Positions 23,536 to 36,598 of a stretch of 36,598 nucleotides of DNA are shown piece after piece; within the stretch, counting starts at the first letter, position 1, and the number at the start of each line of letters is the position of its first letter. The notes under the pieces are model-generated. The model ran no database searches. It had not been told where the DNA came from and saw only the letters and a list, made by a program, of their open reading frames with translations. Source of the stretch: a virus; IMG/VR virus record IMGVR_UViG_3300025536_000007, positions 1 through 36,598 of that record. One strand, given 5' to 3'. A program made the translations under genes and the position numbers.

Positions 23536-23565
23536 ATTCTAGCACGGGCGAGAATTACTTGTAAA
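23536..23565 (-). promoter_or_regulatory. Promoter of the minus-strand arm (TTTACA-18-TAGAAT with TGc extension)
   Basis: The minus strand reads tttacaagtaattctcgcccgtgctagaat, followed by gagcgtATG. Confidence 0.55.
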
Positions 23566-24139
23566 CACTTTTTTGTTGTATTTTGTTGTAAAAAGTAAAC
23601 AAGTAAATTGTTTATGGATTTATTTCCGTCAGGCGAAAAGTACGCATATATATATTTTATTATATATCCCTACCTATACCCCACCCCCCTTGCCCCTTGC
23701 TTTCTCCTGTATTATATTTCCTTATATATATACCTACCTATATGCTCATGCTTACTGTTGGGATTTTGTTTGTGCATATACATCTATGTATGATTGCCCC
23801 ATGCTTACATACGCAGCAGCAACTACCTAGATACTGCTATAAATAACCTGTTATACCTGAAACATATTATAACATAAAACATATTATATAATGTCGTTGT
23901 CAATAATAAACACTTTTTTTTATAAACTCTCTCTAAAAAACAAAAAAAGAAAAAAAACAAATTAAAAAACTGACCTTCATCTGTTATTTTCGTTATGACC
24001 AAAAATAAAATGTTTATTTTTTTACCCCGAAATAAACCAAAAAAATAGTGTAGCTTATTTTTACAAAACAATAAAACCCATTTTTTTACAAATCTACCCC
24101 TGTTAGCAAAAAAACAATAAAAAATAAACAAGAAAAGTG
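23566..24139. other. Gene-free AT-rich control region with iteron-like repeats, A-tracts and a C/G-tract (candidate origin/regulatory hub)
   Basis: No credible ORF. It contains a tandem ttttgttgta x2 (23571-23590), CATGCTTAC x2, AAACATATTATA x2, tacctata x2, TTTTTAC(A/C) x3 and long A-runs at 23925-24135. Confidence 0.45.
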
Positions 24140-24168
24140 TTGACAAACATGCTGCGGTTTGATACTAT
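24140..24168 (+). promoter_or_regulatory. Early promoter P1 (TTGACA-17-TACTAT with TGa extension)
   Basis: Reads ttgacaaacatgctgcggtttgatactat. The -35 is a perfect consensus and the -10 is TG-extended. Confidence 0.75.
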
Positions 24169-24174
24169 ATATAC

Positions 24175-24659
24175 ATAGCAAAAGCAAAGGCTATAACGGA
24201 AATAACCACAACCGAGCGGAAAACGACAAAGCGAAATGCAGTCACCGCCAACAGTGGCAACACCATCAAATAACCATAGCAACGGCTATAACAGTACGAG
24301 CAGCAACGCAACGATTACGGCGGGCAATCCCTGGAAGATTGCAACTTTAATTGACGCAACGGGAGCTGAGCACCTTAACAATTAAAAAAATGCACAAGCG
24401 ACAAGCTATGGAATTTAGCGGCGGTGCAATAATAAACGGTGATACCTTCACCTCTGATTGAAAAGTTACGATTGAACCGTACACGCTGCAACCTATATTT
24501 TTTACAAACTTACGGCATCAACTCACATTCAATCAGGCGCGAGGGTATCACCAAAGAGCAACGATTATGAGTTGTTGCTCATCCCTCATAACGCGGTGTT
24601 ATGGGCGATGAGTAGCAACGCAAAGGCTACTATATAAATTAAGCGAAAGGAAATAAATC
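24175..24659 (+). ncRNA. Long structured 5' leader / candidate ncRNA transcribed from P1
   Basis: About 485 nt lie between the predicted TSS and the first RBS-equipped ATG (24660). Multiple long complementary segments and five (A)GCAACG copies are present; see findings. Confidence 0.5.
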
Positions 24660-24857
24660 ATGGTTTTAATATATTTTCAAGGCATCGAACGGGCTTACCC
24701 ATTATCGCAATGGGCTGAATTGTATGTTGATTATGTCAACAACTTTTTGACTGTTGAGAAATGGGCAGAACATTACAGCCTCACACTCGAGCAAGCAAGC
24801 GAAATAATCGCAGTGGGCAAAATAACTGATAGCTTTAGTAAACCGTACACTTTTTAA
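24660..24857 (+). CDS. Early protein, possible small HTH-like DNA binder
   Basis: 65-aa ORF with RBS gaaaggaaataaatcATG. The segment TVEKWAEHYSLTLEQASEIIAVGK is helix-turn-helix-like; this is weak. Confidence 0.55.
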   Translation: MVLIYFQGIERAYPLSQWAELYVDYVNNFLTVEKWAEHYSLTLEQASEIIAVGKITDSFSKPYTF

Positions 24858-24876: not shown

Positions 24877-25008
24877 ATGGACTACTATTCACGAAAAAAG
24901 CGCGAGCAGGCGAAAGCAGCACGGCGTGAAACCATAAAAATTTGGGCAACAGCGGTGGTAACTTTACCCGTTTTGTGGCTTTTTATGGTTCTATTTTTAA
25001 GCATTTAA
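24877..25008 (+). CDS. Small membrane protein (43 aa), below the ORF-track cutoff
   Basis: My own translation gives MDYYSRKKREQAKAARRETIKIWATAVVTLPVLWLFMVLFLSI*. It has a basic N-terminus plus one TM helix, and an aaagg motif 11 nt upstream. Confidence 0.4.
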   Translation: MDYYSRKKREQAKAARRETIKIWATAVVTLPVLWLFMVLFLSI

Positions 25009-25837: not shown

Positions 25838-25866
25838 TTGACTTTTAAGCTACAGCATGATAGCAT
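25838..25866 (+). promoter_or_regulatory. Early promoter P2 (TTGACT-17-TAGCAT with TGa extension)
   Basis: Reads ttgacttttaagctacagcatgatagcat. The shared leader motif follows at 25876-25898. Confidence 0.6.
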
Positions 25867-25906
25867 AAGGGGTATGGCAAGCAAGGGCTATAGAAAGGAA
25901 AGTAAT

Positions 25907-26062
25907 ATGAGCGTATCACTACTCGAAGTCATTGAATCAGGCGGTTATGACATAACCACTGTTGAAGATGCAAGATGGTTGGTATCAAAACAATCAGAGT
26001 TTGAGCAGCTTATCGGTGAGGCAGAAGCCGTCATTGAGGCAAGCGAGGCGAGCGATGATTAG
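25907..26062 (+). CDS. Small highly acidic early protein (51 aa)
   Basis: The ATG at 25907 follows gaaaggaaagtaat. The product is MSVSLLEVIESGGYDITTVEDARWLVSKQSEFEQLIGEAEAVIEASEASDD. The track start at 25838 is the -35 TTG of P2. Confidence 0.5.
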   Translation: MSVSLLEVIESGGYDITTVEDARWLVSKQSEFEQLIGEAEAVIEASEASDD

Positions 26063-31853: not shown

Positions 31854-31860
31854 CTAAAGT

Positions 31861-32110
31861 GAGGCATTGCGCCTCGCTCTGGGCAGCTCGCAGAATAGAA
31901 ACGGGAGATTACTTAGACTTTTCTATGTAGCCTTTGCGCCCGAATCCGTAGTGAGCTGTCCATAATGAGGCGCAAGAGTTGGCGATAGATGAGGGGGAGG
32001 TTCACCTTGAAAGACCAGGCAAGCCGAAGGCGAATATTCAACGGTCAAAATGATAGGTTTCATGCCGATATCGACTAAGTATGATGAGCCCCCTGCCATT
32101 TATCGCCAAC
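31861..32110 (+). ncRNA. Two-domain structured intergenic element (candidate ncRNA or cis-regulatory RNA)
   Basis: The 270-nt gap contains no ORF. Domain 1 is closed by 31867-31889 pairing with 31953-31975. Domain 2 is closed by 31978-31997 pairing with 32089-32110. Confidence 0.45.
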
Positions 32111-32123
32111 AGGAAAAACAACT

Positions 32124-36240: not shown

Positions 36241-36598
36241 TTATTTGTTTATTTCTGTATCACAGTCACGCGCTGCAAAAGTTTTATCAACAAAATCTTG
36301 GAATGAATCTACTCTGTTGGTCTGCTCTTGTGTGCGTGGCTCACTAAGGGTGAGTGATATAACGTAAGCCCATAACTCACGTTGATTCTTACGAGAATCA
36401 TTAGCGGTTTCACAATTCCGAATAAGAGCGGCTTTAGTGGTCTCACTTTGATTTGCTAGTTGATGAGTCCGAACAGTGATATAGCCGAAACCAAAAGTCA
36501 GTAGAACGTCAAAAGCAACCGTAACGGCTAGAAGAACTACCTGTCGAGATTGTTTCTTATCGGCACGAGCCAGTGCTTCCACCTGGAGGTCTATGGGG
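36241..36598 (-). CDS. Junction-spanning type-II membrane protein (3' part; the true ATG maps to position 177 of the other repeat copy; about 135 aa)
   Basis: It contains the TM helix VVLLAVTVAFDVLLTFGFGYITV followed by a Cys-containing ectodomain. The frame stays open to the window end and continues through the 127-bp overlap. Confidence 0.55.
   Translation of the reverse strand, partial: PIDLQVEALARADKKQSRQVVLLAVTVAFDVLLTFGFGYITVRTHQLANQSETTKAALIRNCETANDSRKNQRELWAYVISLTLSEPRTQEQTNRVDSFQDFVDKTFAARDCDTEINK
36472..36598. repeat. Terminal overlap copy 2 (identical to 1..127)
   Basis: Direct base-by-base comparison with 1-127. Confidence 0.9.

Follow-up and report, generated by a model that had tools for sequence, protein, structure and literature searches.

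The stretch of DNA analyzed here, hereafter the window (36,598 nt; IMG/VR record IMGVR_UViG_3300025536_000007), begins and ends with the same 127 bases (positions 1-127 and 36472-36598) and therefore represents a circular assembly of a phage genome of ~36,471 bp. Its genes form two divergent arms in a lytic-style layout. The minus-strand genes from 1 to 23529 include those for terminase, a DUF5906 primase-like protein, and an HNH endonuclease, while early and replication genes, among them those for a helicase and a YqaJ-type exonuclease, occupy the plus strand from 24660 on. The arms are separated by a divergent intergenic region of ~1.1 kb, in which the direction of transcription and the GC skew switch. 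This region harbors the subject of this study, a 485-nt leader (24175-24659) located between a promoter, P1, and the first early gene. We found that the leader contains no conserved open reading frame (ORF) and that it is a chain of local helices maintained by compensatory changes in related phages. We are confident that this leader is an RNA with a conserved structure and without coding function. A blastn search of INPHARED with the leader region returned zero matches, and in protein searches the best INPHARED identities of TerL and the helicase were only ~28-30%; the phage thus has no close isolate and, judged from its sequence, is non-lambdoid. An ENA contig (L166, k141_298314, 36,612 bp) is identical to the window across the 6.2 kb compared.

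P1 (24140-24168; plus strand, as are all leader features described below) is an extended -10 sigma-70-type promoter, TTGACA-17-TACTAT, with a TG at -15/-14. This agrees with the original prediction for this locus, which described P1 as near-consensus and placed the first ATG with a ribosome-binding site (RBS) at 24660. The corresponding Shine-Dalgarno (SD) sequence, AAAGGA, is located at 24646-51, and the gene (24660-24857) encodes a 65-aa product that matches phrog_26669 (E=2e-11). The first early gene varies from relative to relative, and the 65-aa protein, tried as a search anchor, was found in this same phage only. Instead of the two other early promoters with ~40-nt leaders that had been proposed, a single further promoter of the P1 type was found, namely P2 (25838-25866). 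It is followed by a leader of ~35 nt consisting of a hairpin (TATGGC...GGCTATA, 25873-92), an SD, and an ATG at 25907 (promoter and short leader together spanning 25838-25909). Transcription start sites were inferred from the position of the -10 box.

Relatives were collected with three anchors: a conserved 126-aa protein encoded upstream, a 50-aa protein encoded ~1 kb downstream, and an exact 19-mer of the hairpin at +1. This yielded ~20 contigs, referred to by their locus numbers, with roughly a dozen distinct leader versions. The same architecture was present in L004, L011, L002, L140, L142-L145, L149, and L180, as well as in the human-associated clades L167-L182 and L174/L176, which comprise phages of ~34 kb. 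The contigs covering the region have a common layout, with the leader keeping its position and orientation. A promoter of the form TTGAC-N17-TG-n-TAnnnT comes first, a hairpin starts 6-8 nt past its -10 box, and 235 to 883 untranslated nt lead up to an SD and a variable first gene. The P1 promoter type precedes the homologous leader in most relatives that cover that site. The most divergent relatives, L141 and L147, are without a recognisable motif of the first hairpin, H1; ahead of the early promoter, these two carry several TTGTAGACA...TGTCTACAA inverted repeats that resemble operator sites (L141, 2664-3640; L147, 1-140). The 19-mer gave no clue to the host, as all 18 matches in bacterial genomes were coding (AKAKAI) and unrelated. 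Chance matches dominated among those listed in a scan with the 14-mer CAACGCAAAGGCTAY. Positions 1-23 of Logan contig L148 correspond to the Nextera adapter AGATGTGTATAAGAGACAG, an assembly contaminant.

Several lines of evidence indicate that the leader is not translated. A 49-aa frame at 24236-24385 has no SD ahead of 24236, and its ATG is replaced by ACG in L004. Reading from the homologous triplet gives frames of 49, 11, 68, 13, and 13 codons in the window, L004, L011, L180, and L143, respectively, with unrelated products. Indels that distinguish the leaders of relatives have lengths not divisible by three. A second frame, of 14 aa at 24566 and read by eye, is shifted by a 1-nt indel in L004, and by eye there is no ATG at this position in L140 and L002. 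We therefore rejected a leader peptide or other small ORFs, none of which is conserved; although open frames exist, the idea that the region encodes small proteins, such as the 49-aa or the 14-aa frame, is barely conceivable.

Searches for known RNAs were negative. Rfam gave no match in the window at the gathering score; at E≤10 the sole hit, to a miRNA and attributable to chance, lay upstream of P1 and on the minus strand. In the 13 relatives run (E≤1), only tRNAs were recovered, and ARAGORN found no tRNA in the window. The original view of a non-coding structured leader outside Rfam was supported, and the 49-aa frame, whose conservation as a protein would have spoken against it, is not conserved. 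Because Rfam has no match, the leader belongs to an undescribed family of modular structured RNAs, and the family itself is new.

Structures were derived by RNAalifold on short collinear segments, and pair counts were checked against shuffled alignments and against controls with slid partners. The structures come from the same alignments of 3-7 sequences as the counts, so the covariation reported here amounts to strong indications and is not R-scape-grade. An alignment of the whole 5' domain of 11 sequences by MAFFT followed by RNAalifold was poor, and almost nothing was gained from it. The leader consists of the helices H1, H2, H3, H4, P5, D2, D3a/b, and H1', and no pseudoknotted core was detected in it. 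Between the window and L004, almost all leader substitutions are compensatory pairs, wobble-preserving changes, or located at unpaired positions.

H1 (24175-24194) is a hairpin at the inferred 5' end, ATAGC-AAAAGCAAAG-GCTAT, whose stem is either ATAGC/GCTAT or TAAC/GTTA in relatives, representing a compensatory change from G-C to A-U. In H2 (24216-24252), GCGG (24216-19) pairs with CCGC (24245-48) and encloses a GCG-AAA-UGC hairpin (24230-38); an invariant CAAC follows. All 4 of its 4 pairs were changed on both sides among 7 sequences and none was broken, the stems seen being GCGG/CCGC, TCGG/CCGA, ACGG/CCGT, GTAG/CTAC, and AACGG/CCGTT. H3 (24276-24289), ATAGC-AACG-GCTAT followed by TAACA or TATACA, is a third and shorter copy of the hairpin motif and belongs to the direct-repeat family D4/D8; its stems vary between ATAGC/GCTAT, AACC/GGTT, and TAAC/GTTA.

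An alignment termed A6 (24299-24432, 4 sequences) covered H4, a boxA-like motif, and P5. H4 (24301-24368) is a multi-helix element with outer CAGC/GCTG and inner GCAATC/GATTGC (24324-42) helices that ends right before the boxA-like motif. P5 (24391-24428) is a hairpin built in three tiers, TGCAC/GTGCA, CG/CG, and GCTA-TGGAATT-TAGC, and its U-G-A/G-A-A-U-U loop is conserved. H4 (helices 1-4 of the alignment) accounts for 17 pairs, 9 of them changed on both sides, and P5 (helices 5-7) for 12 pairs, also with 9 changed on both sides. Together, 18 of 29 pairs were changed on both sides compared to 7.8 ± 1.9 in shuffled alignments, and 89.7% of cells were paired compared to 66.5% after shuffling (0/500 shuffles reached the observed value). 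Sliding the partners by 1-3 columns left 28-37% paired cells and 2-5 compensatory pairs.

The 3' half includes D2 (24438-24552), a 115-nt irregular hairpin in which two 9-bp helices surround a conserved internal loop, UUCACCU/GCGCGAG. It corresponds to the inverted repeat 24438-62/24528-52 of the original prediction (25 nt, 84% complementary). Among 3 sequences, 10 of its 29 pairs were changed on both sides, and 95.4% of cells were paired compared to 81.0% in shuffles (0/500). The substitutions between the window and L004 comprise 2 compensatory pairs, ~12 unpaired positions, and 1 terminal pair, and the internal loop (UCACNU/GCGCGAG) is conserved in L011 despite unrelated flanking helices. 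We considered a K-turn for this loop and rejected it, since in our own reading it does not fit the G-A/A-G pattern. A candidate internal promoter in the apical loop of D2 (TTGAAC-16-TATATT, 24472-24499) is kept in L004, is not conserved in L011, and was dismissed as well.

D2 is followed by D3a (24556-24580, GAGCAAC/GTTGCTC), the 3' arm of which overlaps D3b by 3 nt; in L004, A24557G is accompanied by T24579C, and C24562T gives a G-U pair. D3b (24578-24612) is an 18-bp hairpin with an invariant U-G pair located directly upstream of H1'. Half of its 18 pairs (9) were changed on both sides among 4 sequences, with 93.8% of cells paired compared to 80.0% in shuffles (0/500). H1' (24612-24630, GTAGC-AACGCAAAG-GCTAC) repeats the leader hairpin in full; L004 and L011 have the identical sequence, and L140 and L002 have variants of it. 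An A-rich spacer and the SD come next, as in the short P2 leader. All sequence features listed in the original prediction were found at their positions, including the hairpins at 24324-42, 24556-80, and 24578-24612, and the homologous leaders provide covariation for the local helices H2, H3, H4, P5, D2, and D3b.

The three long-range pairings that had also been proposed fared differently. They are complementary in the window, and two of them occur in its minimum free energy (MFE) structure, but they are not conserved. For CACCGCC/GGCGGTG and CCATAGC/GCTATGG, the two present in the MFE structure, the homologous sites of L011, L140, and L180 pair at only 2-4 of 7 positions; in the local model with covariation, their bases are part of H2, H3, and P5. 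The third, GAGCAGCAAC/GTTGTTGCTC (24298-307/24571-80), has no counterpart by eye in L140 or L004.

Folding energy was less informative than covariation. The MFE of the leader is -124.7 kcal/mol (z = -3.38), with 1/100 shuffles folding as well, and the leaders of all nine relatives tested had z-scores between -2.5 and -6.7. Two observations weigh against reading this stability as proof of a functional fold. First, 13 coding windows of equal length from the same genome had a mean z of -1.5, with one at -3.8. Second, the reverse strand folds at least as stably, which we attribute to its U/G-rich composition. The energy test suggested with the original prediction thus gave a favorable value within the range of coding controls. 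As the z-score of the leader falls within this range, folding energy alone is weak evidence, and we take the helices as real because of the covariation in relatives. The MFE comparison of strands was discarded as uninformative, since a U/G-rich complement folds better by composition. Instead, a hand tally of the consensus helices gave ~23 G-U cells, invariant U-G pairs included, compared to ~6 A-C cells. Because G-U cells outnumber A-C cells and the tRNAs found in leaders of relatives share this strand, the plus strand is the folded strand.

The G-U pairs also bear on the idea that the region, placed between divergently transcribed arms, acts at the DNA level as a replication origin, an operator array, or a packaging or terminal region. 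Its location at the switch of transcription direction and GC skew, next to an AT-rich zone with repeats in which many contigs of relatives break, would fit such a function, as would H1, a palindrome overlapping +1. However, the G-U pairs that the helices keep, some of them invariant, would be A-C mismatches on the other strand, covariation runs across long irregular hairpins, and tRNAs occupy the same slot of the transcript. In addition, the H1-type hairpins of P1 and P2 differ in their stems within one genome, unlike shared operator half-sites, and contig ends are spread over ~130 bp upstream of P1 rather than lying within a defined site. We consider a DNA-level element quite improbable.

The duplicated motif turned out to be the standard hairpin of early leaders. 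The direct repeats AGCAAAAGCAAAGGCTA (24177-93) and AGCAACGCAAAGGCTA (24614-29), recognized already in the original prediction, correspond to the two hairpin copies H1 and H1'. The short P2 leader starts with the same type of hairpin in every relative. Its stems differ, but GCAAAGGCUAU, spanning the 3' loop half and the 3' arm, stays conserved; next come AGAAAGGA and the ATG. In most relatives covering them, the hairpin begins 6-7 nt past the -10 hexamer at P1 and 6-8 nt past it at P2. H1' together with the A-rich spacer and the SD (24612-24659) thus reproduces a P2-type leader at the end of the long leader. The proposal that ~420 nt were inserted into a short leader did not hold, as no relative has a short P1 leader (minimum 235 nt). 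The idea also fails the check suggested with the original prediction, as L180 shares the whole 5' half and yet lacks a second hairpin copy before the RBS.

GCAACG, said to occur five times, is present six times on the plus strand (24279-24620) and is indeed enriched: it is not common genome-wide, with 32 copies on both strands of the window, which corresponds to ~0.2 expected per 485 nt. GCAACGATTA occurs twice (24308 and 24558), as had been reported. Since the repeats are leader-encoded and accompanied by some internal complementarities, we considered an immunity RNA of the P4 CI or P1 c4 type, i.e., a small RNA processed from the leader that pairs with leader repeats and shuts the operon off. 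The repeats are, however, direct copies of one hairpin motif and not antisense/target pairs, no leader stretch complementary to the RBS region was seen by inspection, and the 10-nt complementarity between 24298-307 and 24571-80 is the one without a counterpart by eye in L140 and L004. Moreover, neither C4 nor any other Rfam family matched even at E≤10. Such an immunity RNA is very improbable.

A different regulatory role would be that of a switch or attenuator for the first gene, in which alternative pairings within 24515-24630 (the 3' strand of D2, D3a, D3b, and H1') respond to a ligand, a protein, or translation. Mutually exclusive pairings of this kind had been suggested, and one case received support: D3a and D3b share 24578-80, and the T24579C change in L004 is matched in both partners, A24557G and A24611G. 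Additionally, RNAalifold extends D3b into the 5' arm of H1', and 24515-30 and 24563-78 are 81% complementary. However, the overlap is merely 3 nt, so that D3a and D3b can largely coexist. The supporting comparison is that of the near-identical pair of window and L004, and the alternative pairings are absent in L140 and L002 despite the shared D3b. The other parts of such a device are missing. There is no conserved U-tract terminator, the one candidate after 24324-42 being lost in L011 and L180, the SD (24646-51) lies outside every conserved helix and thus no stem masks the RBS, and no riboswitch family matched. A switch is therefore improbable.

Besides H1, only one block is present in every long-leader clade, namely a single-stranded boxA-like motif, GCACCTTAACAATTAA (24370-24385, about +200). 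It matches 13 of 16 bases of the E. coli rrn sequence GCTCTTTAACAATTTA, a region that occurs 7 times per genome in 5426/5426 complete E. coli genomes. Compared to the gamma-proteobacterial boxA consensus GYTCTTTAANA (PMC5725501), which may not be that of the host, GCACCTTAACA of the window differs at 2 bases, positions 3 and 5; a 485-nt strand would contain ~0.004 such matches by chance (derived value). The motif was found in the window, L004, L011, L140, L180, L145, and the L167 and L174 clades, with the consensus (G)(C/A)A(C)(C/U/A)UUAACAA(U/C)U at +173 to +221, and it is kept at ~+200 even in clades whose flanks no longer align. In the RNAalifold consensus it is unpaired and sits between H4 and the conserved-loop hairpin P5. 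Its probability of being unpaired (0.49-0.85) exceeds the leader means (0.38-0.50), making it more accessible in 8/8 leaders.

BoxA is necessary and sufficient for formation of the rrn antitermination complex (PMC10250234), and long non-coding RNAs and CRISPR arrays are preceded by boxA elements (PMC7862264). Non-lambdoid phages that depend on Nus factors are reported to exist (PMC11893012). In the phage leader, ~275 untranslated nt lie downstream of the motif, and 24175-24304 upstream of it is A/C-rich and T-poor (C/G up to 1.77, 6-9 T per 78 nt). Such a composition is what Rho prefers. Because it is A/C-rich and T-poor, the first ~130 nt of the transcript would be Rho-prone.

Several observations nevertheless count against a boxA. 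Structural work showed that NusB contacts only boxA nucleotides 1-8 (PMC3177189), and only 6/8 of these bases match, so that the mismatch falls exactly where NusB reads the RNA. In all clades A replaces U at position 3, and positions 2, 4, and 5 vary, while the best-conserved part, UUAACAAUU, lies mostly outside the NusB core. The short-leader relatives L143, L149, and L147 carry degenerate versions only, and RNAalifold pairs part of the motif in the L167 clade, without covariation. By inspection, boxC (UCUGUGUGGG) is not present in 24386-24659, where P5 follows the motif instead. Taken together, we consider it quite possible, though somewhat short of probable, that the motif works like a boxA, and we do not file it as a proven member.

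The leaders of relatives are mosaics. The 5' half (24175 to ~24440) is common to the window, L011, L140, and L180 (the latter with 66% identity to the window over 24175-24438), D2 to the window, L004, and L011, and D3b to the window, L004, L140, and L002. In other relatives the leader ends with tRNAs, which are encoded on the same strand as the leader and directly before the first RBS. We found a tRNA-Asn(GUU) at this position in L167 (6588-6664), L175 (2545-2621), and L178 (4517-4593), and a tRNA-Asn together with a tRNA-Met(CAU) in L174 (12225-12379). That RNA modules, tRNAs among them, are exchanged at a single fixed position points to a hot spot of accessory functions based on RNA. An extra structured-looking module of ~200 nt, GATATAAGTCCGAAATGGCG...CACGGTCATGGTGTG...ACATTAAAACAGCG...GCAGGCACTT, was noticed in L011 (leader index 380-600) and L002 (index 430-600); it is absent from the window and has no Rfam match.

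These observations raise the question of whether the leader is mainly a vehicle for trans-acting RNAs, with D2, D3, and P5, or the tRNAs of relatives, being excised as decoys, sponges, tRNA-like RNAs, or anti-defence RNAs that act on host or defence proteins. In that case they would be comparable to GOLLD/ROOL or to stable RNAs from the tRNA clusters of phages. The mosaic and fast-changing content at the head of the early operon, beside hypervariable small first genes, is in line with this, and so is the presence of tRNA-Asn and tRNA-Met in the same slot in L167, L175, L178, and L174. Furthermore, loops are conserved while helices covary (UCACNU/GCGCGAG in D2, UGAAAUU in P5, and AAAGCGAAAUGCAG in H2), and the phage RNAs GOLLD and ROOL are often located near tRNA islands (bioRxiv 10.1101/2024.12.08.627333). 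On the other hand, no module is delimited by a terminator or its own promoter, there is no Rfam match, and an IMG/VR scan for the internal-loop pattern of D2 recovered the contig of L004 only, the 15 others being chance matches. Trans-acting products, be it as the main purpose or as an additional one, are rather unlikely, and they would be compatible with a cis-acting leader.

Our preferred reading is that of a cis-acting, untranslated 5' leader of the first early operon and a member of a modular RNA family. That it works in the way outlined here is just short of an even call, and the mechanism as a whole, all three steps of which are drawn from the anatomy of the leader, stays tentative. Host RNA polymerase would transcribe the leader from P1, and H1 at the very 5' end would shield the transcript from 5'-end-dependent decay. 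The boxA-like motif would then recruit NusB/S10 and other Nus factors and render RNA polymerase Rho-resistant. As in rrn operons and CRISPR leaders, the polymerase could then reach the early genes across several hundred untranslated nt and, in some relatives, across tRNAs as well. Finally, D2 and D3b may serve as processing sites for an endonuclease of the RNase III type. Once cut there, the mRNA would start with H1' and carry a hairpin-plus-SD head like that of the short P2 leader, and a stable RNA of ~400 nt would be set free from the 5' side. The modules of the 3' half, D2 and D3 in this phage and other hairpins or tRNAs in relatives, might represent exchangeable cargo.

The processing step is the more doubtful one, though it remains a realistic option. 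RNase III substrates are double-stranded almost without interruption over at least ~20 bp. D2 and D3b have about this length, with 9 + 9 bp on the two sides of a 7-nt loop, itself partly pairable, in the lower stem of D2 and with 18 bp in D3b. Two features are not readily explained by the outlined roles. The conservation of the D2 internal loop and of the P5 and H2 loops suggests specific recognition beyond simple processing, and the conserved GCAAAGGCUAU hints at recognition of the H1-type hairpin by a factor, beyond mere shielding.

A more far-reaching possibility, which we regard as unlikely, is that the leader is the first known case of a class of large, modular phage RNAs that are the earliest to be expressed in infection. 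In this view, the conserved 5' platform (H1-H2-H3-H4, boxA-like motif, and P5) drives Rho-proof synthesis of interchangeable trans-acting cargo. Such cargo would be D2/D3-type hairpins with conserved recognition loops, or tRNAs, acting against host defence or on the translation apparatus. If this were true, it would parallel, at the level of RNA, the hypervariable anti-defence proteins for which phages and plasmids have genes at their leading end. More generally, if the proposed role of the leader is correct, a lineage of uncultured phages, found in environmental and human-associated samples, opens infection with a structured RNA of several hundred nt and not with a protein gene. These phages may also borrow the antitermination signal of host ribosomal operons without a lambda-like N, which would extend Nus/boxA control to non-lambdoid phages. 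In any case, the new RNA family offers clear covarying helices and conserved loops for biochemical probing.

The surroundings of the leader showed additional features. The second early gene (24877-25008) encodes a 43-aa protein that is conserved in L011 and L180 and has an Arg/Lys-rich N-terminus, MDYYSRKKREQAKAARRETIK, and a hydrophobic tail. Pfam gave no match for this ORF. Its N-terminus loosely resembles the Arg-rich motif of lambda N, while the transmembrane tail favors a small membrane protein. On the other side of the intergenic region, a leftward promoter (TTTACA-18-TAGAAT, 23565-23536) and P1 have a common 26-nt upstream element (23559-23584 and 24121-24146) in inverted orientation (81% complementary), and the two look like twin divergent promoters sharing an A-rich upstream block. 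Within a block conserved upstream of P1 in relatives, GTTATTTTCGTTAT (23983-23996) is 93% complementary to ATAACGGAAATAAC (24193-24206), which lies just past H1. The second ATAAC is not conserved in relatives, and the pair may be due to chance or be a DNA-level operator pair flanking P1.

At least 8 independent contigs of relatives (loci L001, L003, L005, L006, L009, L014, L144, and L145) end near P1, in the AT-rich zone at ~24030-24165 or just within the leader, with ends spread over ~130 bp. In a contig of 37.8 kb (IMGVR_UViG_3300046315_000119), the two ends overlap by 195 bp with a single mismatch, and this overlap lies in the AT-rich zone upstream of P1. The contig ends near P1 could mark genome termini or a region that merely breaks assemblies and varies between strains. 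Farther downstream, a gene-free gap of 270 nt between plus-strand genes (31854-32123) contains a hairpin that directly adjoins the stop codon of the upstream gene. At 31927-38 it also has a copy of CGCAAAGGCTAC on the reverse strand, and neither strand showed a clear promoter.

Among known systems, the closest functional analogues are the rrn leader, in which boxB-boxA-boxC nucleates the rrnTAC, and the boxA elements upstream of CRISPR arrays and suhB. As in the rrn leader, a structured RNA that is long and untranslated, and in some members includes tRNAs, is made from a strong promoter, and a single-stranded GC(N)C(Y)UUAACAAUU motif that shares 13/16 bases with E. coli rrn is placed between hairpins. 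By analogy with rrn and CRISPR boxA, the proposed role would be Rho resistance (PMC10250234, PMC5725501, PMC7862264). Unlike rrn, the phage motif has A and not U at position 3, agrees with 6/8 NusB bases (PMC3177189), and is not accompanied by boxC (UCUGUGUGGG). It is also located ~200 nt from the start, whereas the rrn boxes lie just after the promoter (PMC10250234).

The closest phage analogues are the nut sites and the T7 A1 leader. Like lambdoid nut sites, which consist of boxA and an N-bound boxB, the leader stands at the head of an early operon and has a hairpin, P5, ~20 nt after the boxA-like motif; the loop of P5 (UGGAAUU or UGAAAUU; GAAAU in L011) is conserved and its stem covaries. 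The lambda boxB loop is a GNRA-like GAAAA pentaloop, which the P5 loop is not. In addition, no N homologue was found, the Arg-rich 43-aa ORF having a transmembrane segment. The early leader of T7 runs from promoter A1 and contains the RNase III site R0.3 before gene 0.3. Like it, the phage leader extends over several hundred nt between the first promoter for the host polymerase and the first gene, an accessory one, with a long irregular hairpin just upstream of the first RBS; for the phage leader, processing is only inferred. To our knowledge, the T7 leader is not described as a conserved multi-helix RNA and has no boxA.

Less close are the P4 CI and P1/P7 c4 RNAs, which are likewise encoded in the untranslated leader of the operon they could control and contain repeated motifs; unlike them, the phage leader has no C4 match and no antisense/target arrangement, and it belongs to a genome laid out in lytic style. 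The ompA mRNA is an example of a 5'-terminal stabiliser hairpin in bacteria. H1 resembles such hairpins in that it sits at the inferred +1 without a single-stranded 5' tail at both early promoters, and it differs from them in that GCAAAGGCUAU is conserved in sequence. Closest in flavour are GOLLD and ROOL, large phage RNAs near tRNA islands whose function is unknown (bioRxiv 10.1101/2024.12.08.627333). With these the leader shares a length of several hundred nt, heavy structure supported by covariation, and, in some members, adjoining tRNAs. Neither Rfam model matches (window, E≤10; relatives, E≤1), and unlike GOLLD and ROOL the leader is made up of local hairpins in a row, varies in its 3' half, and forms the 5' untranslated region of an mRNA. 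Overall, structured early leaders that probably carry an antitermination signal are a kind already known, and what is unusual in this one is the modular cargo slot.

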